A program made the position numbers and the translations under genes. From Thermoanaerobaculia bacterium (GTDB lineage Bacteria > Acidobacteriota > Thermoanaerobaculia > Multivoradales > UBA5704), in assembly GCA_044866775.1 (NCBI GenBank), contig JBIOUG010000136.1, positions 7,709 to 71,708 of the forward strand: DNA of 64,000 nt, written 5' to 3'. Within the stretch, counting starts at the first letter, position 1, and each line of letters opens with the position of its first letter. A model generated the notes under the pieces. It was not told the origin of the DNA and ran no database searches. It worked only from the letters and a program-made list of their open reading frames with translations. This document shows positions 26,750-49,871 of this stretch, piece after piece.

Positions 26750-26893
26750 GACTCTGTTCTCCTGACAACTTGGAGCCGGTCCGCCGGCTCCGGGGGTTTC
26801 GGATCCACGTTCGGGAGGCGGGATTGTACCGCGTTTTGGCCGCCGGCGCGCGGCCGGGTCGCGGTTTGACCCTCCGCCGGGGGCGGACTAACC

Positions 26894-27694
26894 TTGCCCG
26901 GCGACTCGCGAGGAGACCTCTTGCCCCTGACCTACGGCGACTATCTCAAGCTCGACGACCTCCTGGAGCTGCAGGTCCCGCAGTCCCCGGGGCCCGAGCA
27001 CGACGAGATGCTGTTCATCGTCATCCACCAGGTCTACGAGCTGTGGTTCAAGCTGGTGCTGCACGAGGTGATCCACCTGCAGCGCGCGCTCGAGGCCGGC
27101 GAGGGGGCGCTGGCGATGGCCGCCTTCAAGCGCATCCTGACGATCTTCAAGACGCTGGTGGCGCAGGTCGACATCCTGGAGACCATGACGCCGGTCTCGT
27201 TCCTCAGCTTCCGCGACCGCCTCGACACGGCGAGCGGCTTCCAGTCGGTGCAGTTCCGGCGCCTCGAGCTGGTGCTCGGCGTGCGCCGGCCCGGGATGCT
27301 CGAGCACTACCCCGAGGCGAGGCCGGTCCTCGAAGAGCACGGGCGCGCCAACAGCCTCTGGGACTCCTTCCTCCTCTACCTCGCCCGCGCTGGGTACGAA
27401 GTGTCGGAATCGGCGCTCGCCCGCGACCGCACGCAACCCCTCGAGGAGGATCCGGAGGTGCAGGAGCTGCTGGTCCGCATCTACCACCAGGACCCCTCGA
27501 CGCGCGAGGTCTGCGAGCGCATGGTGGACCTCGACGAGGGGCTCCAGGAGTGGCGCTACCGCCACGTCAAGATGGTCGAGCGGACGATCGGCACCCGCCG
27601 CGGCACCGGCGGCTCGGCGGGGGCGGAGTACCTGCGGACGACGCTCTTCAAGCCGCTCTTTCCCGACCTCTGGGCGATCCGGCCACGGCTGTGA
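26894..27694 (+). CDS. kynA: tryptophan 2,3-dioxygenase
   Basis: LTYGDYLKLDDLLELQ...HDEMLFIVIHQVYELWFKL...SGFQSVQFR...WRYRHVKMVERTIG. Confidence 0.9.
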   Translation: MPGDSRGDLLPLTYGDYLKLDDLLELQVPQSPGPEHDEMLFIVIHQVYELWFKLVLHEVIHLQRALEAGEGALAMAAFKRILTIFKTLVAQVDILETMTPVSFLSFRDRLDTASGFQSVQFRRLELVLGVRRPGMLEHYPEARPVLEEHGRANSLWDSFLLYLARAGYEVSESALARDRTQPLEEDPEVQELLVRIYHQDPSTREVCERMVDLDEGLQEWRYRHVKMVERTIGTRRGTGGSAGAEYLRTTLFKPLFPDLWAIRPRL

Positions 27695-27786: not shown

Positions 27787-29028
27787 GTGGCTGCCGTGCG
27801 CCCAGAGACCCTTTACGCCGCTCCCAACGCCCTGGCGGCGCACTATGCGCATTTCCGCGTCGCCGAGCGCCTGCTGCTGACCGGCCACTCCCACCAGGCC
27901 TGGCCCAACCGGGCGCTGGCGGGGCAGCTCCGGGCGTTCGAGGACGCCGCTGAGCTGGTCGATGGGAAGTGGGAACGGGCGTTCGCGATGGCGGCGCGCG
28001 TGCGGCGAGGATTTGCTGGGCTGCTGGGCGAGCCGGAGCGCGAAGGCGCCTACGCGCTCGCGGCAAGCACCCACGATCTCGTCGTGCGCTTCCTCTCGGC
28101 GCTGCCGCTCGGCGAGCGGCCGCGGCTGGTGACGACGGACGGCGAGTTCCACACCTTGAGGCGGCAGCTCGACCGGCTGGCCGAGGAAGGGATCGAGGTC
28201 GTCAAGGTCCAGGTAGGCGAGCACCCCGACGAGCTGGCGCCGCGGCTCGCGCGCGCAGTCGATGAGCGCACCACCGCGGTCTTCGTCTCGGCGGTGCTTT
28301 TCCAGACCGGCTGGATCGTTGAGGGGCTGGCGGAGGTGGCGGCTGCCTGCGCGAGAGTCGGAGCGGAGATCGTGGTCGACGCGTATCACGCCCTGAACGC
28401 CATCCCCTACCCGATCAAATGCCTCGGCCTCGACGGCGCCTACGTCGTGGGCGGCGGCTACAAGTACTGCCAGCTCGGCGAGGGCAACTGCTTCCTGCGC
28501 CTGCCGGAAGGCTGCGCGCTGCGGCCGGTCGTGACCGGCTGGTTCGCGGAGTTCGAGGCGCTGGCGGAGAAGGCCGACGGGCGCGTGGCCTACGCGGAGG
28601 GCGGCGCGCGCTTCGCCGGCGCCACCTACGACCCGACCAGCCACTATCGAGCCGCCGAGGTCTTCGACTTCTTCGCCGAGCACGGGCTCACCCCGGAGCT
28701 GCTGCGCGAGGTGTCGCAGCACCAGGTCGGGCTCCTCGCGCGCCGCTTCGACGCCCTCGACCTTCCGCCGGCGCTGGTGGATCGTGACCGCGAGGTGCCG
28801 CTCGAGCGAATCGGCGGCTTCCTTTCGCTGCGCTCACCGCGAGCCGGAGAGCTGAGCCGCGCCCTCGCCGCGCGCGGCGTCGCCACCGACTTCCGCGACG
28901 ATCGCCTGCGCCTGGGCCCGGCGCCCTACCTATCGGACAGTCAGCTCGAAGCGGCGATGGACCTGCTCGGTCAAGTGGTGCACGAGCTGCACCTCCCCCA
29001 CCCAGATCCTTCGCTTCGCTCAGGATGA
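27787..29028 (+). CDS. kynureninase-like PLP-dependent enzyme (class V aminotransferase fold)
   Basis: LLTGHSHQAWP...AVFVSAVLFQTGWI...VVDAYHALNAIP...GGGYKYCQLGEGNCFL is colinear with KynU motifs but divergent. It is adjacent to kynA. Confidence 0.6.
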   Translation: MAAVRPETLYAAPNALAAHYAHFRVAERLLLTGHSHQAWPNRALAGQLRAFEDAAELVDGKWERAFAMAARVRRGFAGLLGEPEREGAYALAASTHDLVVRFLSALPLGERPRLVTTDGEFHTLRRQLDRLAEEGIEVVKVQVGEHPDELAPRLARAVDERTTAVFVSAVLFQTGWIVEGLAEVAAACARVGAEIVVDAYHALNAIPYPIKCLGLDGAYVVGGGYKYCQLGEGNCFLRLPEGCALRPVVTGWFAEFEALAEKADGRVAYAEGGARFAGATYDPTSHYRAAEVFDFFAEHGLTPELLREVSQHQVGLLARRFDALDLPPALVDRDREVPLERIGGFLSLRSPRAGELSRALAARGVATDFRDDRLRLGPAPYLSDSQLEAAMDLLGQVVHELHLPHPDPSLRSG

Positions 29029-30229: not shown

Positions 30230-30313
30230 AGCCGGAGAAACACTACCTGAGCCCGGGAGGCTTCCCGCTGCCGCCGTTGACCCGCGCGCGCCGCGCCGGA
30301 TAGCTTCTCCGGC

Positions 30314-31852
30314 GTGACCTTCGACCCTCCCGAGCAGCTCAACCTCGCCGACTGGCTGCTCGACGCGCGAGTGCGCGAGGGGCGGGGGGAGCGGGTGGCG
30401 CTGCGGCTGGACGACCGCACGCTCACCTACCGCGAGGTGCAGGCGCTCGCCAACCGCTTCGGGCGCGTGCTCGAGCGGCTCGGGGTGCTGCCCGAGCAGC
30501 GGGTCTTGATCGCGCTGCCGGACGGGCCCGAGTTCGTGGCGGCGCTCTTCGGGACGCTCAAGCTCGGGGCGGTGGTGGTGATGGTCAACTCGCAGCTCCC
30601 GGCGGCCGACCTGGTGCGCCTCGTCGACTACACGCGGGCGCGGCTGGCGGTGGTGGGCGCCGAGGCGCTCCCGGGGTTCCTCGAGGCCGCGGGCTCGCTC
30701 GAGCGGCCGCCGGCGCTCCTCACGGTGGGTGCGGCCGCCTCCGGCGCCGCCGCCTGGGAGGACGAGCGCGAGCGGGCCGGCGACGACCTGCCCGCCTTCC
30801 CCACGCACCGCGACGACGCCGCGATCTGGCTCTTCTCCGGCGGCACGACCGGCCGCCCGAAGGCGGTCGTCCAGACCCATCTCTCGTTCGCCAACACCAC
30901 CGCCTGCTACGCCCGGGCCTGCCTCGGCTACGGCGAGGACGACGTCACCCTCTCGGTCCCCAAGCTCTTCTTCGGCTACGCCACCGGCTCGAACCTCTTC
31001 TTCCCCTTCTCGGCCGGCGCGAGCGCGGTGCTCTTCCCCGAGCGGGTGACCGCCGAGGTGCTGTTCGAGAAGATCCACCGCCACCGGCCGACGATCCTGA
31101 TCAACGTGCCGACGATGGTCCACCACATGGTGGCCCACCCCGGGGCGGCGCGGCAGGACCTCTCGAGCCTGCGCTTCGCCACCTCGGCCGGCGAGGCGCT
31201 GCCGGCCTCGCTCTACGAGCGCTGGCGGGAGACGTTCGGCGTCGAGCTGCTGGACGGCCTGGGCACGGCCGAGATGTGGCACATCTTCCTCTCGAACCGC
31301 CCGGGCGACGTGCGGCCGGGGACGCTCGGCAAGCCGGTGCCCGGGTTCGAGGTGCGCGTCTGCGACGAGGAGGGCCGGGAGCTCCCCGCGGGCGAGGTGG
31401 GCCGCCTCTGGGTGCGCGGCCGCTCGCGGGCGATCGGCTACTGGCAGGAGAGCGAGAAGACCGCCGCCACCTTCCGCGGCGAGTGGGTGGTGACCGGCGA
31501 CCTCCTGTCGCGCGACGCCGACGGTTACTTCACCTACCGCGGCCGCTCCGATGACGCGCTCAAGGTCGCCGGCCGCTGGTTCAACCCCGGCGAGGTCGAG
31601 AGCTGCCTCGTTCGCCACCCCGCGGTCGCCGAGTGCGCGGTCGTCGGCGTGGTCAACGCCGACGGCCTCACCAAGCCCCGCGCCTACGTGGTGGCCAAGG
31701 AAGCGGCGAGCGACGGCCTCGCCGAGGCGCTCAAGGCGCTCTGCCTGCAAGAGCTCGAGCCCTACAAGCACCCGCGCGAGATCGTCTTCGTCGACGCCCT
31801 GCCGCGGACGCACCTGGGGAAGGTCGACCGCGGCAAGCTGCGGGCCGGCTAG
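30314..31852 (+). CDS. aryl-CoA ligase (benzoate-CoA ligase / 2-aminobenzoate-CoA ligase family, AMP-forming)
   Basis: GTG start. LFSGGTTGRPKAV (AMP-binding P-loop), FFGYATGSNLFFPF, WVVTGDL, YKHPREIVFVDALPRTHLGKVDR. Confidence 0.85.
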   Translation: MTFDPPEQLNLADWLLDARVREGRGERVALRLDDRTLTYREVQALANRFGRVLERLGVLPEQRVLIALPDGPEFVAALFGTLKLGAVVVMVNSQLPAADLVRLVDYTRARLAVVGAEALPGFLEAAGSLERPPALLTVGAAASGAAAWEDERERAGDDLPAFPTHRDDAAIWLFSGGTTGRPKAVVQTHLSFANTTACYARACLGYGEDDVTLSVPKLFFGYATGSNLFFPFSAGASAVLFPERVTAEVLFEKIHRHRPTILINVPTMVHHMVAHPGAARQDLSSLRFATSAGEALPASLYERWRETFGVELLDGLGTAEMWHIFLSNRPGDVRPGTLGKPVPGFEVRVCDEEGRELPAGEVGRLWVRGRSRAIGYWQESEKTAATFRGEWVVTGDLLSRDADGYFTYRGRSDDALKVAGRWFNPGEVESCLVRHPAVAECAVVGVVNADGLTKPRAYVVAKEAASDGLAEALKALCLQELEPYKHPREIVFVDALPRTHLGKVDRGKLRAG

Positions 31853-35207: not shown

Positions 35208-35223
35208 CGGCACCGGCGCGGAG

Positions 35224-36882: not shown

Positions 36883-36892
36883 CTGGAGAGAC

Positions 36893-37528: not shown

Positions 37529-37805
37529 GTGCGTTCTCCCCGCGCTGGATGGCTCCACTCACGCGCGCTCGACGATAGATCAGGCAATCGCCATCAAGCT
37601 AATCGTCTATTAGGTTCGCCGTCTAGCCTAAACTACCACAGCGAGTAGCCTGGCGCGCCTCTCGGAGGCCTGCTCCCTCCACCCGTCCCTCTTCCTTCCT
37701 ACGCTGGTCCGACATCGATCCTGCCTCCTGGTCAAGGGGATTTTCCCCCAACAGGAGTGTCAACCTCGGAAGGGGGAACAGGGTACGTGCTAGCATTCGC
37801 CAGGC

Positions 37806-38699
37806 GTGGGCGCACGGCAGCACACACTTTCCCGCCTTTCCTCCCCAGGCCTCCTCTTCGCGATCGGCGGCGCCGAGGACAAGACGCGCGAGCGCGCCAT
37901 CCTGCACGCGTTCATCGAGGCTTCGGGCGGGCACGACGCCAACGTCGTGGTGCTGGCGACCGCGTCGGAGGTGGCCGAGACGGGGGAGCGCTACAGCGAC
38001 CTCTTCCGTAAGCTCGGCGTGCGGGACGTCGCGGTGCTCCAGGTCCTCACCCGCGAGGACGCGCTGACGACGACCTCGGCGGCGCTGGATGCGCTCGAGC
38101 CGGCCACCGGCCTCTTCATCACCGGCGGCAACCAGATCCGCCTCTCCTCGGCCCTCGGCGGCACGCCGCTCGCGGCCGCCGTCCACCGCCGCCATGCCGC
38201 CGGCCTGGTGGTGGCGGGGACGAGCGCCGGCGCGTCGCTGCTGTCGCTGCACATGATCGCGCTCGGCGAGAGCGGCGGCACGCCGCGCCGCCGCCTGGTG
38301 CACCTGGCGCCCGGCCTCGGGCTCGCGCCCGAGCTCATCATCGATCAGCACTTCCGCCGCCGCGATCGGCTGGGGCGGCTGCTGACGGCGCTTTCCTACA
38401 ACCCGGCGCCGCTCGGCGTCGGTATCGACGAGGACACCGCCGCCGTCATCGAGCCGGACGGCAAGCTCCGGGTCATCGGCTCGGGAGCGGTCACCGTGGT
38501 CGACGCCTCGCGCCTCCACTTCACCGACAGCCACGCGGTCAAGCGCGGCCAGCCGGTGGCGATGCTGGGCCTGCGCCTCGACATGCTGACCGCCGGCTGC
38601 CGGTACGACATTCAGCGCCGCGCCGCCGAGCCGCCGCCGGTCGTCCCGGTGCGCGAGACGGAGACGCCGGCGGAACCGTTTCTCACGGAAGATCGCTAG
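37806..38699 (+). CDS. cphE: cyanophycinase (peptidase S51)
   Basis: LLFAIGGAEDK...VVVLATAS...FITGGNQ...VVAGTSAGAS (nucleophile Ser)...IIDQHF. Confidence 0.85.
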   Translation: MGARQHTLSRLSSPGLLFAIGGAEDKTRERAILHAFIEASGGHDANVVVLATASEVAETGERYSDLFRKLGVRDVAVLQVLTREDALTTTSAALDALEPATGLFITGGNQIRLSSALGGTPLAAAVHRRHAAGLVVAGTSAGASLLSLHMIALGESGGTPRRRLVHLAPGLGLAPELIIDQHFRRRDRLGRLLTALSYNPAPLGVGIDEDTAAVIEPDGKLRVIGSGAVTVVDASRLHFTDSHAVKRGQPVAMLGLRLDMLTAGCRYDIQRRAAEPPPVVPVRETETPAEPFLTEDR

Positions 38700-38711
38700 C
38701 CAGCCAGGGCT

Positions 38712-38785
38712 GATCTCCCTGACTCCGAGCCCACGCAGACGTTCCCCTCTCCCATGTGGGAGAGGGGCCAGGGGTGAGGGAGATC
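38712..38785. repeat. nested palindromic intergenic element
   Basis: The inner hairpin CCCCTCTCCC-ATGT-GGGAGAGGGG (38744-38767) is flanked by the outer inverted repeat GATCTCCCT (38712-38720) / AGGGAGATC (38777-38785). Confidence 0.6.
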
Positions 38786-38900
38786 GGATCAATGCAGGAA
38801 AGCTGGAAGCAGCTGCGACTCTCGCGCCTCCCGAACGGTCGCCCGAATGAAGACGGGCCGACTCTCTTCTGTGGCATGCGGCGTGCTTTTCCGCCCTCGC

Positions 38901-41561
38901 ATGCAGATCCTCGAGACGCGCACGTACCGCGGCCCGAACCTCTACGCGCTCTGGCCGGTCATCCGGCTGCGGCTCGACCTGGGCGAGCTCGAGGAGTATC
39001 CGACCGGCCGGCTGCCGGGCTTCGCCGACCGCCTCGTCGCGCTGATCCCCTCGCTCGGCGAGCACACCTGCTCCTACGAGGGGCCGGGCGGGTTCGTGCG
39101 CCGCCTGCGCGAGGAGGAAGGCACCTGGCTCGGGCACGTCCTCGAGCACGTGGCGCTCGAGCTCCAGTGCCTCGCCGGCACGCGCGTCAGCTTCGGCAAG
39201 ACGCGCGGCGAGGGGCTGCCGCGCGGCCAGTATCACGTCGTCTACAGCTACCGGCAGGAGGAGCTGGGGCACGGCGCGGGCGAGCTCGCGCTGCGCCTGC
39301 TCCGCCACCTGCTGCCGCCCGAGCGCGCCGCACACCTGCCGGGGCCGTTCGACTTCGCCGCCGAGCTCGCAGACCTCCGCCGCCGCGGCGAGGAGAGCGC
39401 CTTCGGCCCCACGACGGCGGCGCTGGTGCGGGCGGCCGAGGAGCGCGACATCCCCTGGCGGCGCATCAACGACGGCGCCCTCGTGCAGCTCGGCCAGGGC
39501 CGATACCAGCAGCGGATCGAGGCCTCGGTCACCGCCCGCACCAGCCTGCTGGCGGTCGAGATCGCCGCCGACAAGCGGCTCACCAACCAGCTCCTCGGCG
39601 ACCGCGGGCTGCCGGTGCCGCGGCAGGAGGTGGTGGGCTCGGCCGAGGAGGCGGTGGCGGCGGCCGAGGAACTGGGCTGGCCGGTGGTGGTCAAGCCGGT
39701 CGACGGCCATCACGGCAACGCCGTGGCGACCGGTCTCGCGACCGCCGAGCAGGTGCGAACGGCCTACGCGCGGGCGCGCGAGGAGTCGGCGGGAGTCGTC
39801 GTCGAGCGCCACCAGCGGGGCCACGACTACCGCATCCTGGTCGTCGACGGGCGAGTGGTGGCGGTGGCGCAGCGCGTCCCCGGGCACGTGGTGGGGGACG
39901 GCCGCCACACCGTGGCCGAGCTCGTCGAGCGGCTCAACGCCGATCCGCGCCGCGGCGCCGGGCACGAGAAGGCGCTGACCCGCATCGAGCTCGACGAGCA
40001 GGCCGAGCGGCTGCTCGCCACTGCCGGCCTGACCGCCGTGTCCGTCCCGCCCGCCGGCCGCGTGCTCTACCTCCGCTCGACCGGCAACCTGTCGACCGGC
40101 GGCACGGCAATCGATCGCACCGACGAGATCCACCCCGACAACGTGGCGATGGCCGAGCGGGCGGTGCGCGCGGTCGGCCTCGACGTCGGCGGCGTCGACT
40201 TCATCACGCCGGACATCGGCCGGAGCTGGCGCGAGGCGGGCGGCGCGATCATCGAGGTCAACGCCGGCCCGGGCTTCCGCATGCACGTGGCGCCGAGCCA
40301 AGGGACGCCGCGCGACGTCGCCGGCCCGGTCGTCGACATGCTCTTCCCGCGCGGCACGAGCGCGCGCATCCCGATCGCCGCCATCACCGGCACCAACGGC
40401 AAGACGACCACGACGCGCCTGGTCGGGCACATCCTGCAGCTCGCCGGCTACACCGTCGGGATGGCGACGACCGACGGCGTCCACGTCGGCGGCGCGCTCA
40501 CCGTGCCCGGCGACATGACCGGCCCGGAGGCGGCACGCCTGGTGCTCACCGATCCGCAGGTCGGCGCGGCGGTGCTCGAGACGGCCCGCGGCGGGCTGCT
40601 GCGCGCCGGGCTCGGCTTCCGCGAGTGCAACGTCGGCGCGGTGCTCAACGTCGCCGCCGACCATCTCGGGCTCGACGGCGTCGAGACGCTCGACGACCTC
40701 GCCGGCGTCAAGCGGATCGTCGTCGAGGTGGCGCGCGATGCCTGCGTCCTCGACGGCGACGATCCGCGGGTGGCGGCCATGGCCGAGCACAGCCCGGGGG
40801 CGCCGATCTTCGTCGCGCTCGACGCCAAGCGACCGCTGGTGCGCCACCACGTCCGGCAGCGCGGCAAGGCGGTGACGCTCGACGAAGGGACGATCGTGCT
40901 CCACGAGGGCGAGGCGCCGCTGCCGCTGCTCGAGGCGCGGTCGATCCCGGCGACGCTCGGCGGGCGCGCCCGCTACAACGTCAAGAACGCCATGTTCGCC
41001 GCCGCCATCGCGCACGCGCTGGGGGTCGGGCTCGACACCATCCGGCTCGGGCTCCGTACCTTCGACCTCTCGTTCGATGCCATCCCCGGACGCCTCAACC
41101 TCTACGACGGGCTGCCCTTCCGGGTGCTCCTCGACTACGCCCACAACGCCCACGCGCTGGCGGCGCTCGGCGAGCTGCTGCGGGCGATGCCGGTCGAGGG
41201 GCGGCGGATCGGCGTCCTCGCCTCCCCGGGGGACCGGCGGGACGAGGACGTGCGCGCGGTCGGCCGCGCCGCGGCGGCGGCCTTCGACCTCGTGCTGCTG
41301 CGCGAGGACGACGACCGGCGCGGCCGCGCTCCCGGCGAGACCGCGGCGCTGCTGCGGCAGGGGCTCCTCGCGGCCGGCTTCCCGGCGGCGCGGATCGTTC
41401 CCGGGGTGCTGGGCGAGGAGGCGTCGGTCGAGCGGGCGCTGGTGCTGGCCGAGGCGGGCGACTTGGTGATCGTGCTGGCCGACAAGGTGTCCCGAGCTTG
41501 GCGCCAGATCACGAGGTTTGAGCTGGTGCCGGTGCCGGCGCTAGTTGGTATGGCGCCGTGA
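38901..41561 (+). CDS. cphA: cyanophycin synthetase
   Basis: I set the start at the ATG at 38901 (MQILETRTYRGPNLY...). It has an ATP-grasp core and a C-terminal Mur-ligase-like part (ITGTNGKTTT). Confidence 0.9.
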   Translation: MQILETRTYRGPNLYALWPVIRLRLDLGELEEYPTGRLPGFADRLVALIPSLGEHTCSYEGPGGFVRRLREEEGTWLGHVLEHVALELQCLAGTRVSFGKTRGEGLPRGQYHVVYSYRQEELGHGAGELALRLLRHLLPPERAAHLPGPFDFAAELADLRRRGEESAFGPTTAALVRAAEERDIPWRRINDGALVQLGQGRYQQRIEASVTARTSLLAVEIAADKRLTNQLLGDRGLPVPRQEVVGSAEEAVAAAEELGWPVVVKPVDGHHGNAVATGLATAEQVRTAYARAREESAGVVVERHQRGHDYRILVVDGRVVAVAQRVPGHVVGDGRHTVAELVERLNADPRRGAGHEKALTRIELDEQAERLLATAGLTAVSVPPAGRVLYLRSTGNLSTGGTAIDRTDEIHPDNVAMAERAVRAVGLDVGGVDFITPDIGRSWREAGGAIIEVNAGPGFRMHVAPSQGTPRDVAGPVVDMLFPRGTSARIPIAAITGTNGKTTTTRLVGHILQLAGYTVGMATTDGVHVGGALTVPGDMTGPEAARLVLTDPQVGAAVLETARGGLLRAGLGFRECNVGAVLNVAADHLGLDGVETLDDLAGVKRIVVEVARDACVLDGDDPRVAAMAEHSPGAPIFVALDAKRPLVRHHVRQRGKAVTLDEGTIVLHEGEAPLPLLEARSIPATLGGRARYNVKNAMFAAAIAHALGVGLDTIRLGLRTFDLSFDAIPGRLNLYDGLPFRVLLDYAHNAHALAALGELLRAMPVEGRRIGVLASPGDRRDEDVRAVGRAAAAAFDLVLLREDDDRRGRAPGETAALLRQGLLAAGFPAARIVPGVLGEEASVERALVLAEAGDLVIVLADKVSRAWRQITRFELVPVPALVGMAP

Positions 41562-42779
41562 TGGCTGCGGCGGCCGTTTGAAGCTGGAAAGACGTAAGAG
41601 CGCATCCGAGCCCGGCGCAAGGCTGGCTTCGTAGGCGGCGACGAAGTCGGGGTCGCGGCGGCGCAGGTTCTCGTGGTCCACCTTCTCGCTGCGGGTCATC
41701 GCGCGGTAGGCGAAGGGGAGCGGGTCGAGGTGGAGGTCGCGGGCGGCGGTCTCGAACCACTCGGCGCTCGCCTCGGCCGCCGCCTGATAGCGCTCGACGA
41801 TCGGTCGGCGTGCCGCCTCGAAGGCTTCGAGAGCGGGCGCCAGCGCCGCGTGCTCGCCGATCGCGCGAGCGAGGGCTATGGCGTCCTCGAGCGCCAGCTT
41901 GGTCCCGGAGCCGATCGAGAAGTGCGCGGTGTGCAGGGCGTCGCCCAGGAGCACCGTGCAGCCTAGGCGCGAAGGCTTTCGCGCCGTGCTCCAATCGTGG
42001 CTCCAGCGGCGGTTGCGCAGGGTCAGGAAGTTGATCCAACGCGAGGCGTTCGAGAGCAGCGGCTCGCCGCGCAAGTCGTCCGCGAACACCTGCTCGAGAT
42101 AGCGCAGCCCGTCCTCCTCCGACCGTGCGTCGAGGCCGGCGCGCTCCCAGACCTCCGGGGCGCACTCGACGATGAAGGTGCTGCGGTCGGCGCCGTACTT
42201 GTACGAGTGGGCGATGAAGAGGCCGGCGGCGCTCTCGCGGAAGGTCAAGGTGAGGCCGTGGAAGAGGCGCGGCGTGCCGAGCCAGATGTACTTGTTGGGG
42301 CGGGCGTCGAAGCGCGGCTCGAAGGCGTCGCCGAAGCGCTCGCGCACGACGCTCCGCACGCCGTCGGCGCCGACCAGGAGGTCGGCGGCGGGGAGATCGT
42401 CGACGTCGCCCGCCTCACCCACCGGCTGCGCGAAGCGCAGGTCCACTCCCAGCTCCTCGCAGCGCCGCTGCAGCACCTCGAGCAGCGCCAGGCGCGCGAT
42501 CCCCGAGAAGCGGTTGCCGCGGATCGTGACCTTCTGCCCGCGGTGGACGATGTCGACGTTGTCCCAGCGCGCCAGCAGGCCGTCGAGGACGCGGAAGGTC
42601 GGCGGGTCCGGCTCGGCGAGGTAGGAGAGGGTCTGCTCGGAGAAGACGACGCCCCAGCCGAAGGTGGTGTGGCGCGGGTTGCGCTCGAGGATCGTCACCT
42701 CGTGGCGCGGGTCCGCGCGCTTCATCAGCAGCCCGAAGTAGAGGCCGGCCGGGCCGCCGCCGACGATGACGATTCGCAT
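41541..42779 (-). CDS. FAD-dependent aromatic-ring monooxygenase (matches the N-terminal half of bifunctional salicylyl-/2-aminobenzoyl-CoA monooxygenase-reductases)
   Basis: The ATG at 42779 gives MRIVIVGGGPAGLYFG (GxGxxG)...GADGVRS...LLGDALHTAHFSIGSGTKLALEDA. ATGA overlap with the DUF72 stop. Confidence 0.8.
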   Translation of the reverse strand: MRIVIVGGGPAGLYFGLLMKRADPRHEVTILERNPRHTTFGWGVVFSEQTLSYLAEPDPPTFRVLDGLLARWDNVDIVHRGQKVTIRGNRFSGIARLALLEVLQRRCEELGVDLRFAQPVGEAGDVDDLPAADLLVGADGVRSVVRERFGDAFEPRFDARPNKYIWLGTPRLFHGLTLTFRESAAGLFIAHSYKYGADRSTFIVECAPEVWERAGLDARSEEDGLRYLEQVFADDLRGEPLLSNASRWINFLTLRNRRWSHDWSTARKPSRLGCTVLLGDALHTAHFSIGSGTKLALEDAIALARAIGEHAALAPALEAFEAARRPIVERYQAAAEASAEWFETAARDLHLDPLPFAYRAMTRSEKVDHENLRRRDPDFVAAYEASLAPGSDALLRLSSFKRPPQPSRRHTN

Positions 42780-43498
42780 CAGGCCGCGCTCTCCGCCGCG
42801 AGCTCGAGCAGGCGCCGCGCGGCGAGCGGGCCGCGCTCGTCCTCGTGCTTGAAGAAGAGGTAGGCCTCGCGCCACTCCTGGGCCCGGACCGCGGCGAGCC
42901 AGCGGCGCAGCTCGTCGTCCGGATAGCTCTCGCGGCGCAGCCGCAGGTAGCCGATCGGCGCGGTCGCGATCAGCTCGCCGAGCGGCGCCTCGTCGGTGTC
43001 GGCCTGACAGAGGATGCGCCCGTGCTCGCGCAGCGCCCCGAGGACCTCGTCGTCGTGCCACGACGGATGGCGGAACTCGAAGGCGACCGGGGCGCTCACG
43101 TCCTCCTCGACGAGCAGCGCCAGGAACTCCTGGAGGCGCGGCAGATCCTTCTTGAGGTTCGGCGGCAGGCCGACCAGGACGGGTCCCAGCCGCGCGCCGA
43201 GCGCGGCCACGGTGCGGAAGAGGTAGGAGGTCTCCTCGGCGGCGCCGCGGAGGCGCTTGATGTGGGTGATCCTCTGCGCCGCCTTGAGCGCGAAGCGGAA
43301 GTCCTCCGGCACCTCCGCGGCCCAGGCCTCGATCACCGCCCGCTTGGGCAGGCGGTAGAAGGTGTTGTTGATCTCGACCGCCGGCAGGCGCTCGCCGTAG
43401 AAGCCGAGCATCGACGCGGCGGGCAGCTTCTCGGGATAGAAGCTGCCGCACCACTCCTTGAAGGCGTAGCCGCTGGTGCCCACCCAAAGTCGCGTCAT
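42779..43498 (-). CDS. DUF72 (YecE-like) protein
   Basis: MTRLWVGTSGYAFKEWCGSFYP...VEINNTFYRLP...FEFRHPSW. ATGA overlaps at both ends. Confidence 0.8.
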   Translation of the reverse strand: MTRLWVGTSGYAFKEWCGSFYPEKLPAASMLGFYGERLPAVEINNTFYRLPKRAVIEAWAAEVPEDFRFALKAAQRITHIKRLRGAAEETSYLFRTVAALGARLGPVLVGLPPNLKKDLPRLQEFLALLVEEDVSAPVAFEFRHPSWHDDEVLGALREHGRILCQADTDEAPLGELIATAPIGYLRLRRESYPDDELRRWLAAVRAQEWREAYLFFKHEDERGPLAARRLLELAAESAA

Positions 43499-44967
43499 GC
43501 GCCGGTCTCTTCCGGCGGCTCCCACGCCGGAGGCACGAGGCGCCGCAAGCCGTCGCGCGAGAGGGCAATGCCCGGCGCCTCGAGATCGAGGCGGTCCCAG
43601 AGCTGACAGGTCACCTGCTTGTGCTTCTGATCGAGCCCCTCGCAGACGTTCGAGTAGATGCAGCGCCGCACCTCGGCGCCCAGCCCGAGGCGGACCTTGC
43701 GGTACCAGTCGGGGTCGGCGAGGCTCTGGCGCGCCGCGGCGACGATATCGGCCTCGCCGCGGCGCAGGATGCCCTCGGCCTGCGAGAAGCTGGAGATGCC
43801 GCCCGCGACGACGACCGGCGTCGAGAAGCCGGCGGCGCGCACGGCGGCGCGGATGGCGGCGGTCGGCTCGACGTTGCGCCCGAACGGGCCGCGAGCGTCG
43901 GAGATCGCGGTCGGCATGCACTCGTAGCCGGAGGGGCCGGTGTAGGGATAGGCGGCCCAGCCGATCTTCGGCTGCTTGGCGTCCTCGAACTTGCCGCCGC
44001 GCGAGAGCGACAGGAAGTCCATGCCGGCGCGCGCCAGCTCGACGCCGAAGTAGACGGCGTCCTCCGCGGTGCTGCCGCCGGCGATGCAGTCCTCGGTCAG
44101 GTAGCGGCAGCCGACGGTGTAGTCGGCGCCGGCCCGCTCGCGCACTCGGCGGAAGACCTCGAGCGGCAGGCGCACGCGGTTCTCGCGCGGGCCGCCGTAG
44201 CCGTCCGGCCGGGTGTTCAGGGCGGAGAGGAACGAGGCCATGGTGTAGGCGTGGGCGTAGTGGAGCTCGACGCCGTCGAAGCCCGCCTCGCGGGCGCGGC
44301 AGGCGGCGTCGGCGAAGATGTCGGGGAGGACCTGCGGCAGGTCACGGACGTGCGGGCGGTCCAAGTCGGTGACGCGCTCGCGGAAGCCGAAGCGGAGGGC
44401 CTCGAGCTCGCGCGCGGTGAGGACGCGGTCGAGCGCGGGCTCGGAGAGCGCGAGGAGGCGCTCGCGGACGTCGGCTTCGGGGAGGTCGGCCGGGGCGCCG
44501 AGCGCCGCGCGGTGGCGGTCGGTCACCTGGAGGTAGCGGCGGAAGTAGGTCTCGGGCTCGGGACGGCGCTTGATCGCCAGGAAGTCGATGATCTGGATGA
44601 AGAGGCGGGTGCGGCCGCGGCTCGCGCGGCGCACGGTGTCGACGAGGTCGCGGAGGCCGGGGAGGAAGCGGTCGTGGCCGATGCGCAGGAGCGGGCCGCT
44701 CGGGATGTCGCGGACGCCGGTGGCCTCGACGACCAGGGCGCCGGGCTGGCCCTGGGCGAAGCGCTCGTACCAGGCGAGGACGTCGGGGGTGACGAAGCCG
44801 TCTTCGGTGGCGCGCCAGGGGACCATGGCCGGGACCCAGGTGCGCTCTTCGAGGCGGACGGAGCCGACCTGGATAGGCGAGAACCAGAGCGAGAGGGCAG
44901 CCTCCTCGCGCGTCGGCCAGTCGCCGGGGGGCGGCTCGTGCTTGATGCGCTCGGGAGGCTTCCACAT
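43495..44967 (-). CDS. Old-Yellow-Enzyme-like NADH:flavin oxidoreductase (matches the C-terminal reductase half of the bifunctional CoA-thioester monooxygenase-reductases)
   Basis: I chose the start ATG at 44967 (MWKPPERI...). FDGVELHYAHAYTMASFLS...NTRPDGYGG...VVAGGI...ADIVAAARQSLADPDW. Confidence 0.75.
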   Translation of the reverse strand: MWKPPERIKHEPPPGDWPTREEAALSLWFSPIQVGSVRLEERTWVPAMVPWRATEDGFVTPDVLAWYERFAQGQPGALVVEATGVRDIPSGPLLRIGHDRFLPGLRDLVDTVRRASRGRTRLFIQIIDFLAIKRRPEPETYFRRYLQVTDRHRAALGAPADLPEADVRERLLALSEPALDRVLTARELEALRFGFRERVTDLDRPHVRDLPQVLPDIFADAACRAREAGFDGVELHYAHAYTMASFLSALNTRPDGYGGPRENRVRLPLEVFRRVRERAGADYTVGCRYLTEDCIAGGSTAEDAVYFGVELARAGMDFLSLSRGGKFEDAKQPKIGWAAYPYTGPSGYECMPTAISDARGPFGRNVEPTAAIRAAVRAAGFSTPVVVAGGISSFSQAEGILRRGEADIVAAARQSLADPDWYRKVRLGLGAEVRRCIYSNVCEGLDQKHKQVTCQLWDRLDLEAPGIALSRDGLRRLVPPAWEPPEETGA

Positions 44968-45084
44968 GCCGCCGGCCAGTATAGCGGCGGCGTCCGAGGC
45001 GCATGTTTGCGCCCGAACCGCGGAGCGCAACCAGCGGCCAACCTGCACGTTCGGGGACCGTTTTTCCGTCTTCTCTCGTGGGGC

Positions 45085-45122
45085 TTGACAGAGGGCGTGA
45101 TTGTGGTCACAATGACCACATG
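45085..45122 (+). promoter_or_regulatory. sigma70-like promoter plus palindromic operator of the Phd/VapC module; possibly a leaderless transcript
   Basis: TTGACA (45085-45090), N17, CACAAT (45108-45113). The inverted repeat TGTGGTCA-caa-TGACCACA (45102-45120) spans the -10 and ends at the A of the ATG (45120). No SD is visible. Confidence 0.45.
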
Positions 45123-45404
45123 CGGCGCGCTGTGGGATCGCGAGAGCTGAAGACGCGGTTGGGGACCTACCTGCGCGAGGTGCAAGGGGGAGCGACCATC
45201 GTGGTCACGGAGCGCGGGCGACCGGTGGCCGAGCTACGGCCGGTTCAGCCGGCCGATAGCCTCGAGGGACGCCTGAATCAGATGGCGGCCAAGGGCTTGC
45301 TCAGCCGCGGGACGGGAAGACCGCTGCGCCCCTTCGAACCGATCAAGATCAGCGGTCCGCCCATTTCACAGACGATCATCGAGGACCGCGAGGACCGATT
45401 CTGA
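45120..45404 (+). CDS. type II antitoxin, Phd/YefM family
   Basis: MRRAVGSRELKTRLGTYLREVQGGATIVVTERGRPVAELRPV. Confidence 0.8.
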   Translation: MRRAVGSRELKTRLGTYLREVQGGATIVVTERGRPVAELRPVQPADSLEGRLNQMAAKGLLSRGTGRPLRPFEPIKISGPPISQTIIEDREDRF

Positions 45405-45829
45405 TCGACTTTCTCGACGCGAGCGCCCTGGTCAAGAACTACGTCGACGAGCCGGGGAGAGAGGACGTGCGGCGCGTCCTCGAGCGGGGCGGCGCGGCCG
45501 TGAGCCGTCTGTCGGAGGTCGAGGTGGCCTCGGCGCTGATGCGTCGCGTGCGCCTCGGCTCACTGCCGGCGGAGGAGTACGCGCGCGCCGCGCAAGCTCT
45601 GCGAGCGGACCTCGCTGATCTCGAGGTAGTGGAACTGGAAACGAGAGTCGTGACGTTCGCCACCACCCTCTTGGAGCGTCATCCCCTACGCGCCAGCGAC
45701 GCGATTCAACTCGCGTCCTGCCTGCTCTTGCGCGACAGCCTCCCGGAGCAGGTCGCCTTCCTGGCCTACGACCGGCGCCTCAACGAGGCCGCAGCGCGAG
45801 AGGGGCTGCAGCCGGCGACCGCCGACTGA
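45401..45829 (+). CDS. vapC: type II toxin VapC (PIN domain ribonuclease)
   Basis: LIDFLDASALVKNYVDE...SEVEVASAL...ASDAIQLA...AYDRRL carries the PIN acidic residues. It overlaps the antitoxin stop. The start codon is non-canonical or uncertain (CTG at 45401 or ATT at 45398); the track only reports from the GTG at 45467. Confidence 0.75.
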   Translation: MIDFLDASALVKNYVDEPGREDVRRVLERGGAAVSRLSEVEVASALMRRVRLGSLPAEEYARAAQALRADLADLEVVELETRVVTFATTLLERHPLRASDAIQLASCLLLRDSLPEQVAFLAYDRRLNEAAAREGLQPATAD

Positions 45830-46109
45830 CATCGCGCCCACGCCGCCGCACTACGCGGGGAGCTTGGGTGCCTCCACCTCCTCTCTGGCTACCTGCCCGT
45901 CGTCCTCGGGGAATTGCAAGACAGAGCCGAAACGATGACAATCAACGGTGGACCGCGAGGGAATAAGCACGCGGCAGCGCCGAAGCCATAGAATCCGCGC
46001 CGGCACACCTGTAGCAGACACAGCATGGGGTATCAAACGTGGCGACCAAGTGCGGGGTTGGTGACCCGTCCTCAGTACCCCTAAATTCACCCAGGAGCGA
46101 GCTCTGACA

Positions 46110-46691
46110 ATGCTGCCAATGCAGAACTCGTTTTGTTCGCGATTCGTGCCCGTAAGTCCTTTGGAATCAGAGGTCGATTTTCACCCAGAGGGCTTTTGCC
46201 ACGGGCTGCTGGGGGTACAGGTCGCCTTGGATCTCGACTCTCTACTCGTCGAACTGCTCTCGACCTATGATCTTCTGTGTGCCTTCGTCACGCGATTCTG
46301 CAAAGAGATTCTAGCAGAGCCAAAGAGATGGACCGTTGAAGGCGTTCTGGCGGACATGGACGAACCAGCAATGTGGCTTGAAGAGCTGCGGGAAGCGCGG
46401 AATCATTTCAACCATGGGGCGGGCCTATGGCCTGCCGTGAAGGTGCTCTCGCTCGACCCGCTTTCAATCGAGTTCGTTGCCCTCCGAGAGCATGGGTTGG
46501 CAAACCGCCCGGGAGGCTATGTTGCGTTCGCGACTATTGAACAAGTGTGGTATCAGGTTGACCAGTCCCTTCTCGGTATCCATTCCTGGTTGGTGAACAA
46601 GATCGTTCAAGTCGAGTCGGTGGAGGCGGACACTGTCGTGGAGGCGGACACCTCGAACCGTTCTAGCGCCGCAGCAGCTCGCGGGCGATGA
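46110..46691 (+). CDS. hypothetical protein in an AT-rich island
   Basis: About 50% GC in a hand-counted line and protein-like composition. I recognise no family. The 3' end overlaps the convergent acyl-CoA dehydrogenase by 29 nt. Confidence 0.5.
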   Translation: MLPMQNSFCSRFVPVSPLESEVDFHPEGFCHGLLGVQVALDLDSLLVELLSTYDLLCAFVTRFCKEILAEPKRWTVEGVLADMDEPAMWLEELREARNHFNHGAGLWPAVKVLSLDPLSIEFVALREHGLANRPGGYVAFATIEQVWYQVDQSLLGIHSWLVNKIVQVESVEADTVVEADTSNRSSAAAARGR

Positions 46692-47826
46692 CGAGGAGCT
46701 GGATCTCGGTCGTGCCCTCGTAGATGCGCAGCGCGCGGACGGAGCGGTAGAGGCGCTCGACCGGATGGTCGGCGAGGACACCCTGGCCGCCGAGGATCTG
46801 GAGGGCGTCGTCGACGATGCGCTGCGCGGCCTCGGTGGCGAAGGCCTTGGCGATGGCCGCCGGCAGGGTCAGGCGCTCGGCGCCGCCGTCGCCTTCCCAG
46901 GCGGCACGGTAGACCAGCAGGCGCGCGGCGGCGAGGTCCACCGCCGAGCGCGCGAGCTTCTCCTGCACGAGCTGGAACTCGGCCAGGGTCTTGCCGAACT
47001 GGCGCCGCTGCTTGGCGTGGGCGACCGCCTCGGCGAGCGCCCGCTCGGCCATACCGCAGGCCGCGGCGGCGACCGTCGGCCGCAGCCGGTCGAGAGTGCG
47101 CATGCCGAGCTTGAACCCCTCGCCCTCGGAGCCCAGGCGGGCCGCTTCCGGCACGCGGCAGCCGTCGAAGGCGATCTCGCCCAGCGGGTGCGGCGAGGAG
47201 AGCACCTGCGGCCGCACGAAGCGGAGCCCCGGCGTGCCGGCTTCGACCAGGAAGCAGGAGATGCCGCGCGCGCCCGCCGCCGGGTCGGTGGCGGCGAAGA
47301 CGCAGTAGAAGTCCGCCAGGCCGGCGTTCGAGATGAGCACCTTGCGGCCCTCGAGGACGTAACCGTCGCCCTCGCGGCAGGCGGTGGTGGCCAGGGCGGC
47401 CACGTCCGAGCCGGCCTCGGGCTCAGTCATGGCGAAGGCGGCCATGGCGCGGCCGGCGGCCACCTCGGGCAGCCAGCGGCGGCGCTGCTCGTCGCTGCCG
47501 GCGAGCGCGACCGGCAGCGACCCCAGGCACTGCAGGGCGAAGACGGCGTCGGCGAGCGGCGAGGCGGCGGCGAGGGTCTCGCGCAGCAGGCAGCAGGCGC
47601 GGAGGTCGAGGGCGCCGGCGCCCGCGTCCTCCGCCGGAACCGCGTAGCGCAGCCACCCGGCGTCGCCGAGGAGCGCCAGCAGCTCGCGCGCCTGGCGCCG
47701 CGCCGCCTCGTCGCCGGCCGGCGCCGGCAGCGGTCTGATCGCGCGCGCGGCGAAGGCGGCCGCCGCCTCGGCGAGCGCCAGGTGGCGGTCGTCGAGGAAG
47801 GCGCGAACGGCCGCGACGTCGCTCAC
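46663..47826 (-). CDS. acyl-CoA dehydrogenase
   Basis: [12 protein letters not shown]...[10 protein letters not shown]...[17 protein letters not shown]...IYEGTTEIQ. Confidence 0.9.
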
Positions 47827-48623
47827 TTGAATCGCGGCTCGCGCTTCGCCTTGAAGGCCTCGTACGCCTCGCGGAAGTCCGGGTGCAGCATGCAGGCGGC
47901 CTGGATCTCGGTCTCGGCGGCCAGCGCCGATTCGACGTCCATCGCCGCCTCGCGCAGCAGCAGGCGCTTGGTCACCTCGAGGCCGAAGGCGGGGCCGCGG
48001 GCGAGGCGCTCGGCGAGCGCGGTCGCCTCGGCGAGCACGCGGTCGGCGGGCACCACGCGGTGATAGAGCCCGATGCGCTCCGCTTGGCGCGCCGCGACGA
48101 AGTCGCCGAGCATCAGCAGCTCCGTGGCCCGCCCGAGCCCCACCAGCCGCGGCAGCAGCCAGGAGGCGCCCATGTCGGCGCCGGAGAGGCCCACCTTGGT
48201 GAAGAGGAAGGCGATCTTCGCCTCCTCGGCGGCGACGCGGAAGTCGCAGGCCGAGGCGACGACCGCGCCCGCCCCGGCCACCAGCCCGTTGAGCGCCGCC
48301 ACCACCGGCCGGCGGCAGTGCAGGATGGCGAGCACCAGCGCGCCGGTGACGCGCGTGAAGTCGAGCAGCCCCTGATAGTCGCGCGCGAAGAGGGCGCCGA
48401 TGATGTCGTCGACGTCGCCGCCCGAGCAGAAGGCGCGGCCGCTGCCGGTGAGCACGACCGCGCGCACGCCCGGCTCGGCGTCGAGGGCGCCGAAGACGGC
48501 GGTCAGCTCCTCGTAGACCTCGAAGGTGAGAGCGTTCAGGCGCTCCGGGCGGTCGAGCGTCACGGTGGCGACGCCGCTCGCCGCGTCGAGCGCGTAGCGG
48601 AAGCTGCGGGGGTCGATCGGCAT
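47823..48623 (-). CDS. enoyl-CoA hydratase/isomerase family protein
   Basis: I trimmed the start to the ATG at 48623 (MPIDPRSF...). VTLDRPERLNAL...VVLTGSGRAFCSGGDV. GTGA overlap with the dehydrogenase start. Confidence 0.85.
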   Translation of the reverse strand: MPIDPRSFRYALDAASGVATVTLDRPERLNALTFEVYEELTAVFGALDAEPGVRAVVLTGSGRAFCSGGDVDDIIGALFARDYQGLLDFTRVTGALVLAILHCRRPVVAALNGLVAGAGAVVASACDFRVAAEEAKIAFLFTKVGLSGADMGASWLLPRLVGLGRATELLMLGDFVAARQAERIGLYHRVVPADRVLAEATALAERLARGPAFGLEVTKRLLLREAAMDVESALAAETEIQAACMLHPDFREAYEAFKAKREPRFK

Positions 48624-48627
48624 GGCG

Positions 48628-49062
48628 TCAGGCGCCGGGGAGCACCGCCGTGCCCTCGATCTCCACCATGGCTCCCGGGACGAGGAGCGCCTGCACCTCG
48701 ACGAGGGCCATCGCCGGGTAGTGGCCGCCCATGACCGCGCGGTAGGCGGCACCGACGGCGGCGAGCTGGGCCAGGTAGTCCCGCCGGTCGGTGACGTAGA
48801 TGGTCAGACGCGCCAGGTGCTCGGGCGCGCCGCCCGCCGCGCGCACGACGGCGACGACGTTCTCGAGCGCCTTGCCGAACTGGCCGGCGAAGCCCTCCCC
48901 CACCAGCCGCTGCGCGGCGTCCCACGCGACCTGGCCGGCGACGAAGAGCAGCCTCCCGTCCGCCGGCGCGACGACGCCGTGCGCGTAGCCGCGCGGCGCG
49001 GGGAACCCGGGCGGTTGGACGGCGGTGAGGAACGGCGGACTCACGGGGCCGGATCGACTCAC
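48628..49062 (-). CDS. RidA-family (YjgF/Endoribonuclease L-PSP) enamine/imine deaminase-like protein
   Basis: FVAGQVA...LTIYVTD...PAMALVEVQALLVPGAMVEIEGTAV. Confidence 0.8.
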   Translation of the reverse strand: MSRSGPVSPPFLTAVQPPGFPAPRGYAHGVVAPADGRLLFVAGQVAWDAAQRLVGEGFAGQFGKALENVVAVVRAAGGAPEHLARLTIYVTDRRDYLAQLAAVGAAYRAVMGGHYPAMALVEVQALLVPGAMVEIEGTAVLPGA

Positions 49063-49871
49063 GCCAGCAGCGCGCCCCCGTCTACAACGACGGCCTGGCC
49101 GTTGACGCCGCGCGCCCGGTGGTCGCAGAGCATGACCACCAGGAACGCCACCTCCTCGGGCTCGATCAGGCGGTGCTGCGGCGTCGTGCCGAGGATCCGC
49201 GCGCGCGCCTCCTCGGGCGGCATGCCGGTCTTGCCGGCGATGCGGGCCACCGACTCGTCGGTCATGCGGGTGTCGACGTAGCCCGGGCAGACGGCGTTGA
49301 CGGTGACGCCGCTCGCCGCCACCTCGGCCGCCACGGCGCGCGTGAAGCCGACGACCGCGTGCTTCGAGGCGGCGTAGGCGGCGATGTAGGGAGCGGCGGT
49401 GCGGCCGGCGATCGAGGCGACGTTGACGACGCGGCCCCAGCCGCGCTCGACCATGCCGGGCAGCAGGGCCTGCGTGCAGAGGAAGGTGCCGGTCGCGTTG
49501 ACCGCGAAAACGCGGTTCCAGGTCTCGAGGGTGATCGCCTTGAGCGGCGCCGAGGTGGCGATGCCGGCGTTGTTGACCAGCACGTCGACGCGCCCCATGC
49601 GCTCCTGGGCGGCGGCGGCGAGGGCCCGCACCTGGTCGGGATCGGTGACGTCGCAGGCCACGCCCCAGGCCGCGTGGCCGGCGGCGCGGAGCTCCTCGGC
49701 GACGCCCTCCACCTCGGCGACGGTGCGGGCGGCGAGGAGGACCGCGGCGCCTTCGGCGGCGAGCGCTCGACCGACGGCGGCGCCGATGCCGCGCCCGCCT
49801 CCCGTCACCACCGCCGTGCGGCCTTCGAGGATCACGGCGCGGACGTTAGAGCCGAGGTGGGGGGCTGTCAA
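49059..49871 (-). CDS. SDR-family oxidoreductase
   Basis: AVVTGGGRGIGAA...NNAGI...YAASKHAV (YxxxK)...AVCPGYVDT. GTGA overlap with the RidA start. Confidence 0.85.
   Translation of the reverse strand: MTAPHLGSNVRAVILEGRTAVVTGGGRGIGAAVGRALAAEGAAVLLAARTVAEVEGVAEELRAAGHAAWGVACDVTDPDQVRALAAAAQERMGRVDVLVNNAGIATSAPLKAITLETWNRVFAVNATGTFLCTQALLPGMVERGWGRVVNVASIAGRTAAPYIAAYAASKHAVVGFTRAVAAEVAASGVTVNAVCPGYVDTRMTDESVARIAGKTGMPPEEARARILGTTPQHRLIEPEEVAFLVVMLCDHRARGVNGQAVVVDGGALLA

Follow-up and report, generated by a model that had tools for sequence, protein, structure and literature searches.

In the 64,000-nucleotide stretch analysed here (the window; positions 7,709 to 71,708 of contig JBIOUG010000136.1, assembly GCA_044866775.1, from a Thermoanaerobaculia bacterium of the Acidobacteriota), three overlapping genes encode an Old Yellow Enzyme (OYE)-family flavin reductase, a DUF72 protein and a flavin adenine dinucleotide (FAD) monooxygenase. 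The monooxygenase corresponds to the N-terminal half of the fused 2-aminobenzoyl-CoA (anthraniloyl-CoA) monooxygenase/reductase AbmA (ACMR) of Azoarcus evansii (EC 1.14.13.40; NCBIfam family PRK08255), in which both activities reside in one polypeptide. We consider it fairly likely that the locus as a whole is a split tryptophan/anthranilate CoA-thioester system, in which the stand-alone monooxygenase has a non-orthologous OYE as its partner and the DUF72 gene is a passenger.

The three open reading frames (ORFs) lie head-to-tail on the minus strand at the positions given in an initial annotation of this DNA, and each matches the family assigned to it there. The OYE, the probable reductase partner (43495..44967; 490 aa, of the 485-aa class), scores 132 bits with PF00724 against a cutoff of 27, and its start at ATG 44967 is backed by an N-terminus, MW.P, that is invariant in 30 homologues. 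The DUF72/YecE-family TIM-barrel protein between the two enzymes (42779..43498; 239 aa) matches PF01904 over its full length (190.8 bits against a gathering threshold of 25.3, profile positions 1-216 of 217), and the monooxygenase, the putative anthraniloyl-CoA 5-hydroxylase-type half (41541..42779; 412 aa), matches FAD_binding_3. Of the two 4-nt ATGA junctions described initially, the one between OYE and DUF72 is as reported (43498-43495), whereas the DUF72/monooxygenase junction is a TGATG with an overlap of 1 nt (stop TGA 42781-42779, ATG 42779-42777); the tight coupling of the three genes by overlapping stop and start codons nevertheless stands. A consensus scan, in itself weak evidence, detected no promoter-like or terminator-like sites within the trio on its strand. 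The window has a G+C content of 72% and is part of contig C136 of a metagenome-assembled genome (MAG) of 5.8 Mb and 92% completeness; misassembly of the trio was ruled out, as the same trio is found in four other independent assemblies (JGI, Logan, NCBI and ENA).

The monooxygenase is homologous to the fused enzymes over their full N-terminal half, as had been proposed, with its residues 1-391 matching positions 1-388 of the PRK08255 NCBIfam profile at 461 bits. At 412 aa it is not a single polypeptide of ~750-800 aa, and it fails the PRK08255 equivalog cutoff of 1078 bits. Its second NCBIfam match is the violacein biosynthesis hydroxylase VioD (NF053547, 247.9 bits), which is also the nearest solved structure (3c4a, 8gqr; E 1e-58) and, like the window protein, a stand-alone group-A flavin hydroxylase of similar length. 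However, this score lies far below both the 620-bit equivalog cutoff of VioD and the match to the PRK08255 N-half, and the gene neighbourhood is one of CoA-thioester catabolism and not of violacein synthesis. The protein ends in a tail of ~25 aa (…GSDALLRLSSFKRPPQPSRRHTN, window 41541-41625) that relatives of 375-386 aa do not have, and the last 21 nt of the gene overlap the 3′ end of the convergent cphA (38847-41561).

Word-limited protein searches were run with the monooxygenase and with the OYE, and the best 120 of at least 8000 matches were inspected for each. In both cases these 120 were stand-alone proteins, of ~375-410 aa for the monooxygenase (mostly from Acidobacteriota, many with the automated name 'anthraniloyl-CoA monooxygenase') and of 482-545 aa for the OYE. 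We also extracted the ORFs from a survey sample of 80 loci from species-representative genomes, which contained 54 fused proteins of 700-820 aa (Pseudomonadota, Actinomycetota, Chloroflexota, Myxococcota and a few other phyla) and ~27 stand-alone monooxygenases (mostly Acidobacteriota, with a few from Ignavibacteriota, Bacteroidota and Binatota and two from Burkholderiales). Two fused proteins that were checked exceed the PRK08255 cutoff of 1078 bits, with scores of 1404 and 1102 bits, and so are true members of the family. In an unrooted maximum-likelihood tree of the monooxygenase domain, a single branch with support 100 parts all 54 fused proteins from all split ones; a paralogue was sought in the window's genome as a root for this tree, and none was found there. 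Because this one branch separates split from fused proteins, the split monooxygenase is best seen as an old stand-alone lineage and not as a recently broken fusion, which agrees with the initial view that no stop codon had interrupted a fused gene. The same annotation had contrasted the split layout here with the fused enzymes, but this layout is no peculiarity of the locus: judged by homology, separate hydroxylase and reductase genes are the standard and ancient layout in Acidobacteriota. Split-clade monooxygenases also occur in L022, L025, L035 and L088 (Kapaibacteria, Ignavibacteria and two Burkholderiales); a short-chain dehydrogenase/reductase (SDR) directly follows the monooxygenase in L022 and L025, and no 485-aa OYE was found in the fetched flanks of any of the four.

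The initial annotation had read the OYE as the second half of the fused enzyme, and the analysis does not support this. Among NCBIfam profiles it scores highest with BaiCD (153 bits), followed by mycofactocin OYE2 (134), the C-terminal half of PRK08255 (122) and NamA (101), whereas the C-terminal halves of the fused proteins are NamA/YqjM-like, scoring 286-303 bits with NamA and 186-207 with BaiCD. A full-library HMMER search with the OYE returned mostly fragments, along with a few usable relatives of ~375 aa and ~860-890 aa, and these were placed in a tree with E. coli FadH and NemA as outside references, the window OYE being the only one encoded in the MAG. This tree is a polytomy with long branches: one clade (support 100) comprises the fused C-halves, a second (support 99) unites the window OYE with the ~375-aa and ~860-890-aa OYE-like proteins, and FadH is a third branch. 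Near its C-terminus the window OYE carries the motif C436-I-Y-S-N-V-C442-x11-C454, which aligns to the cluster ligands C335/C338/C342/C354 of FadH. Of the four canonical Cys it has retained three, and the second Cys of the CxxCxxxC is Ser or Thr in this OYE type; the ~375-aa relatives retain all four, and the fused C-halves and NemA have none. The Cys-rich tail noticed earlier is thus a recognisable relic of a FadH-type 4Fe-4S motif, in which cluster binding is putative. Since the profile scores, the tree clades, the Cys motif and the inserts (below) all differ, we assign the OYE, on its sequence, to a FadH/BaiCD-like subfamily and not to the detached C-halves of the fused enzyme. The kinship that had been suggested for both proteins with the fused CoA-thioester enzymes hence applies to the monooxygenase, which belongs to the family's N-half, and not to the OYE, which falls outside the C-half clade.

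The OYE resembles FadH (1ps9), BaiCD and 2-naphthoyl-CoA reductase (6qkg), which are OYE-domain Fe-S flavoenzymes acting on CoA thioesters, in that its OYE barrel is N-terminal and the Cys motif comes after it at the corresponding position. It differs from them in ending at 490 aa, ~35 residues past the motif, without the entire C-terminal FAD/NAD(P)H module of such ~640-670-aa proteins, and its highest-scoring match to the BaiCD profile spans positions 142-344 of 642. It also has an N-terminal extension of ~25 aa in the alignment and an extra insert, P136-F193, that the FadH-type enzymes lack. This insert had been put at ~70 aa; it is real, but measures ~58 aa against the nearest short relatives and ~37 aa net against crystallised OYEs, and in an AlphaFold2 (AF2) model it forms five confident helices. 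A second insert at ~329-365, of roughly 30-35 aa, is common to the ~375-aa relatives with the Fe-S motif and absent from the fused C-halves. C350, within this second insert, is invariant together with C436, C442 and C454 in 30 OYE homologues of 68-89% identity. Unlike FadH, the window OYE retains the classical H-x-x-H-x-Y motif of substrate-binding His pair and proton-donor Tyr, as LHYAHAY, which aligns with LHSAHGY of NemA. The AF2 barrel is confident (predicted TM-score 0.84), and OYE structures lead the list of Foldseek matches to it, the highest query-normalised TM-scores among the first 50 matches being those of 2-naphthoyl-CoA reductase (0.57-0.59), with FadH at 0.55. Where the fused C-halves, NemA and FadH have a strand with the sequence Q-L-x-H-x-G, the window OYE has Q-I-I-D-F-L; its D128 is invariant in the 30 homologues, and the H-x-x-H-x-Y motif is intact all the same. 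In a Blastocatellia MAG (L015:9156-10621), a split-type OYE was recovered as two tblastn pieces covering query residues 1-157 and 214-482, which may reflect a frameshift, a deletion or a pseudogene.

In homologue contigs both close and distant, the two enzymes belong to a conserved cluster of SDR, RidA, enoyl-CoA hydratase, acyl-CoA dehydrogenase, OYE and monooxygenase genes. In the window, the first gene of this ancestral operon is the SDR (49059..49871, minus strand; adh_short 221 bits, conserved synteny), followed on the same strand by the RidA/L-PSP enamine/imine deaminase (48628..49062; PF01042 71.9 bits, TIGR00004 51.6 bits), whose gene adjoins the SDR in relatives as well, by a PRK08258-type enoyl-CoA hydratase (47823..48752; ECH_1; NF006107 366.5 bits, above the cutoff of 330) and by an acyl-CoA dehydrogenase with N, M and C Acyl-CoA_dh domains (46663..47826), which is syntenic in split and fused clusters. 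The true start of the hydratase is probably near 48620, since its homologues align from residue ~43. These four accessory genes surround split and fused monooxygenases alike, whereas 20 of the 27 split monooxygenases but only one of the 54 fused ones have a split-type 485-aa OYE within 8 kb (Fisher p = 4e-12). The accessory genes being common to both types, this distribution means that a separate OYE occurs where a fused C-half is lacking. The order in the fused enzymes is not kept: in split systems the OYE either precedes the monooxygenase directly, as in Thermoanaerobaculia and one Vicinamibacterales MAG, or is convergent and downstream of it, as in Pyrinomonadaceae, Blastocatellia and related Acidobacteriota. 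The OYE-monooxygenase junction was read in four close relatives and is a TTGA or GTGA overlap in each.

One Thermoanaerobaculia MAG (L061:4091-7900, JALXFE010000096.1) carries a split-type 485-aa OYE, 71% identical to that of the window, with a complete fused PRK08255 protein (746 aa, 1102 bits) encoded immediately downstream. The monooxygenase half of this fused protein clusters with sequences from Myxococcota. Apparently, a transferred fused enzyme replaced the stand-alone monooxygenase there, and the separate OYE was kept.

The window also holds, on the plus strand, candidate genes for the steps that precede ring attack. These are a tryptophan 2,3-dioxygenase (TDO; 26870..27694; PF03301 203 bits; TIGR03036 264 bits, E 1e-78, below its cutoff of 390.7), a divergent kynureninase-like pyridoxal-phosphate enzyme (27787..29028; KYNU_C 30.3 bits, above the cutoff of 27), which matches the Pseudomonas fluorescens kynureninase 1qz9 over its full length (E 2e-13), and an aryl-CoA ligase of the benzoate-CoA ligase family (30281..31852; TIGR02262 501 bits, above the cutoff of 375), a candidate anthranilate-CoA ligase. 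In L109, the ligase, the kynureninase-like gene (an orthologue 86-87% identical) and the TDO follow the operon, with only an outer-membrane-protein gene and a TPR gene between. TDO genes are found near split clusters in nine loci of Pyrinomonadaceae, Blastocatellia and other Acidobacteriota, and TDO and ligase together beside eight such loci; ligase homologues adjoin both split and fused clusters. AbmA/PRK08255 enzymes share with the window system both the accessory set, ligase included, and the tie to tryptophan/anthranilate genes. Given the TDO, the kynureninase-like gene and the ligase of the window and the known chemistry and product of the fused 2-aminobenzoyl-CoA enzyme (summarised in PMC3534580), the cluster is best read as a two-protein anthraniloyl-CoA 5-hydroxylase/reductase in a route from tryptophan through anthranilate to CoA thioesters, the individual biochemical steps being predicted by homology.

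The OYE-DUF72-monooxygenase arrangement recurs, as it had been suggested that a survey might find: besides the window, it is present in L007 (JGI), L009 (Logan), L109 (NCBI MAG) and L110 (ENA), where the DUF72 proteins are 83-88% identical to that of the window, and two further short contigs carry a DUF72 of 80-83% identity. The next matches, at 67% identity, are stand-alone genes of same-genus genomes, flanked on one side by a CorA gene with a small RHH gene and on the other by NfeD/Band7. In G001, a complete genome of the same genus, this DUF72-NfeD-Band7 locus is 1.3 Mb from the operon. No DUF72 stands between OYE and monooxygenase in G001 and G004 (same genus) or in L003 and L008 (close relatives), where the monooxygenase directly follows the OYE, and no OYE or monooxygenase was found within 1.5 kb of the DUF72 copies of G001-G004. 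In the window's own genome, the NfeD-Band7 locus (contig C195) is without a DUF72. Among the 80 wider species-representative loci, none (0/80) has a DUF72 within 8 kb. In the DUF72 tree, the embedded copies group together with support 99, and their sister group, with support 87, consists of the same-genus stand-alone copies; we conclude that, on this phylogeny and gene order, the embedding is one recent, lineage-specific relocation. Since the relocation is shallow and the gene is absent from the operon in same-genus genomes, DUF72 is, on the same grounds, not a general component of the aryl-CoA chemistry. What had been singled out as the tight embedding of a protein with no assigned role in this chemistry is therefore tight and real, but particular to one lineage.

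The embedded gene is not decaying. Its ratio of nonsynonymous to synonymous divergence (dN/dS) is 0.23-0.35, compared with 0.23-0.35 for the OYE and 0.24-0.40 for the monooxygenase in the same lineage, dS being compressed in all these values by a third-position G+C content near 0.95; with the frame intact in all copies, a pseudogene-like passenger was ruled out. Overlapping stop and start codons or very short spacers flank DUF72 in all five contigs, across 12-20% protein divergence. To the stand-alone copies, dN is 0.22-0.25, which is about twice that of the OYE or the monooxygenase over the same split. TM1631 (1vpq) is the structural match of the protein (E 2e-16; other family structures are 1vpy and 1ztv). 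In 112 stand-alone DUF72 proteins, 73 columns show a conservation of 95% or more, and at 66 of these none of the seven embedded copies deviates. The window copy differs at four conserved columns (A12, F13, V109 and G110). The pair FQ at 109-110 (window 43169-43174), ~97% conserved in stand-alone proteins, is VG in six of the seven embedded copies and AG in the seventh, and the embedded copies have in common a 2-aa insertion, D133-V134. Apart from these changes, the window copy differs from the DUF72/YecE/TM1631 proteins in its location, which is a catabolic operon instead of a site beside nfeD. Position 110 aligns to Gln114 of TM1631 once a 12-residue tag is subtracted, and Gln114 is a predicted DNA-contact residue (PMC3828134). 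The published functional leads for the family are computational and point to DNA-damage processing or an endonuclease (PMC3828134, PMC11791011), as does a genomic association with polB2.

In the reading that we favour, the gene set would serve the breakdown of tryptophan through kynurenine and anthranilate to anthraniloyl-CoA in Thermoanaerobaculia-like Acidobacteriota, and the ring-attacking step, carried out in other phyla by a single AbmA/PRK08255 protein, would here be shared between two. The stand-alone monooxygenase is predicted from homology to hydroxylate the aryl-CoA at C5, and the separate 485-aa-class OYE, from the complementarity of gene content, to reduce the non-aromatic product. 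This OYE may have been recruited from, or may long have been part of, the FadH/BaiCD-like branch, and it carries the helical insert, the three-Cys relic and a fourth invariant Cys. OYE and monooxygenase would have been coupled ancestrally by overlaps of the TTGA or GTGA kind seen in close relatives. In one shallow sub-lineage, the genome's single YecE-like DUF72 gene would then have left its nfeD site and landed between the two, re-forming overlapping stop/start junctions, so that it would now be co-transcribed and under purifying selection. The same junctions take up other cargo in relatives (below). We rate DUF72 as probably a co-transcribed passenger, with a function that is possibly related to DNA damage and that most likely has no part in the aryl-CoA chemistry.

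Several points weigh against this account. The substrate and the partnership of the split-type enzymes are inferred from homology and gene content. The polytomy in the OYE tree leaves room for a very old fission followed by strong divergence, which may have happened. In the AF2 model of the OYE, the predicted local confidence (pLDDT) falls below 50 exactly at both Cys regions, and C350 is a putative fourth ligand beside C436, C442 and C454. Moreover, the constraint on the embedded DUF72, its tight junctions, its roughly doubled dN and its fixed change at a 97%-conserved residue would also fit a recruitment of DUF72 as a working third component, handling a labile hydroxylated intermediate or bridging the two enzymes. 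The purifying selection as strong as that on the flanking enzymes, the junctions kept in five contigs, the dN excess on the branch that parts embedded from stand-alone copies, the replacement at a predicted ligand contact (TM1631 Gln114) and the empty nfeD locus all speak for such a role. However, the sampled systems manage without DUF72 (0/80 wider loci and 0/4 same-genus or close-relative operons), the event is single and shallow, the family's leads concern DNA damage, and unrelated toxin-antitoxin pairs and a kinase have entered the same junctions in relatives; we hold recruitment to be unlikely. A more elaborate form, in which DUF72 with its altered pocket would process the intermediate or hand it from the monooxygenase to a 'half-FadH' OYE whose Cys cluster draws electrons from a partner, is very improbable in our view. 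If a third-component role were true, it would be the family's first biochemical role, and one outside DNA repair.

The two enzymes could, alternatively, be the separated and reordered halves of the fused enzyme, with the OYE as the orthologue of the AbmA C-terminus. Its 122-bit match to the PRK08255 C-half is compatible with this, and both trees show one clean division between split and fused proteins, such as a single ancient fission or fusion could give. Yet BaiCD and mycofactocin OYE2 outscore PRK08255, the fused C-halves are NamA-like and have neither the FadH-type Cys motif nor the insert of the non-fused Fe-S-motif OYEs, the identity between the OYE and the fused C-halves (~27-43%) is similar to that with E. 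coli FadH (32%), and L061 has a 485-aa OYE beside a complete fused enzyme. We give this explanation little credence and regard the OYE partner as probably a non-orthologous replacement. It is likewise doubtful that the pair acts on another aryl-CoA, such as salicylyl-CoA (as in SdgC) or a differently substituted benzoyl-CoA, and that the tryptophan genes are coincidental. In favour of it, NCBIfam calls the fused family 'bifunctional salicylyl-CoA 5-hydroxylase/oxidoreductase', the ligase is assigned only to the broad benzoate-CoA ligase family, and 10-14 kb with unrelated genes separate the operon of the window from the ligase and kynureninase-like genes. Against this, TDO and ligase recur by split clusters in distant Acidobacteriota, all three genes follow the operon in L109, and the conserved RidA deaminase fits an amino-substituted intermediate.

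No study of a two-protein form was found in the literature searched, and in GapMind tryptophan breakdown through anthraniloyl-CoA is left out because too little is known about it. If the split anthraniloyl-CoA system is as we read it, it would concern a dominant soil phylum, the Acidobacteriota, in which another OYE lineage, one with an Fe-S-type motif, has probably taken the reductase role, and it would bear on how the fused enzyme arose. The DUF72 gene is a clear case of gene relocation into an operon and a caution that tight translational coupling is by itself no proof of functional membership; with its pocket change, the relocated copy offers a natural variant for tests of DUF72 function.

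The operon has also been opened elsewhere. In the window, a Phd/YefM antitoxin and PIN toxin pair (45003..45829, plus strand; PF02604, PF01850) lies between the acyl-CoA dehydrogenase and the OYE, splitting the ancestral operon; the pair is present in L007 and L109, and G001 has a Phd homologue. Phd/PIN gave no match between these genes in L003 and L104, in which the OYE follows the dehydrogenase. A toxin-antitoxin pair with a DUF3368 PIN-like member stands between OYE and monooxygenase in L004 (4991-5874), and an integrase fragment and a Ser/Thr kinase stand between dehydrogenase and OYE in L008 (3489-6467). The dehydrogenase-OYE junction (window 44968-46662) and the OYE-monooxygenase junction thus repeatedly receive foreign cargo. 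The gene order beside the operon is rearranged as well: in the window, an amidohydrolase, an AT-rich orphan gene, a cyanophycinase and a cyanophycin synthetase (35188-41561) separate the monooxygenase from the block of outer-membrane-protein, aryl-CoA ligase and kynureninase genes, which directly follows the monooxygenase in L109, and the cph genes are shared by L003 and G004.

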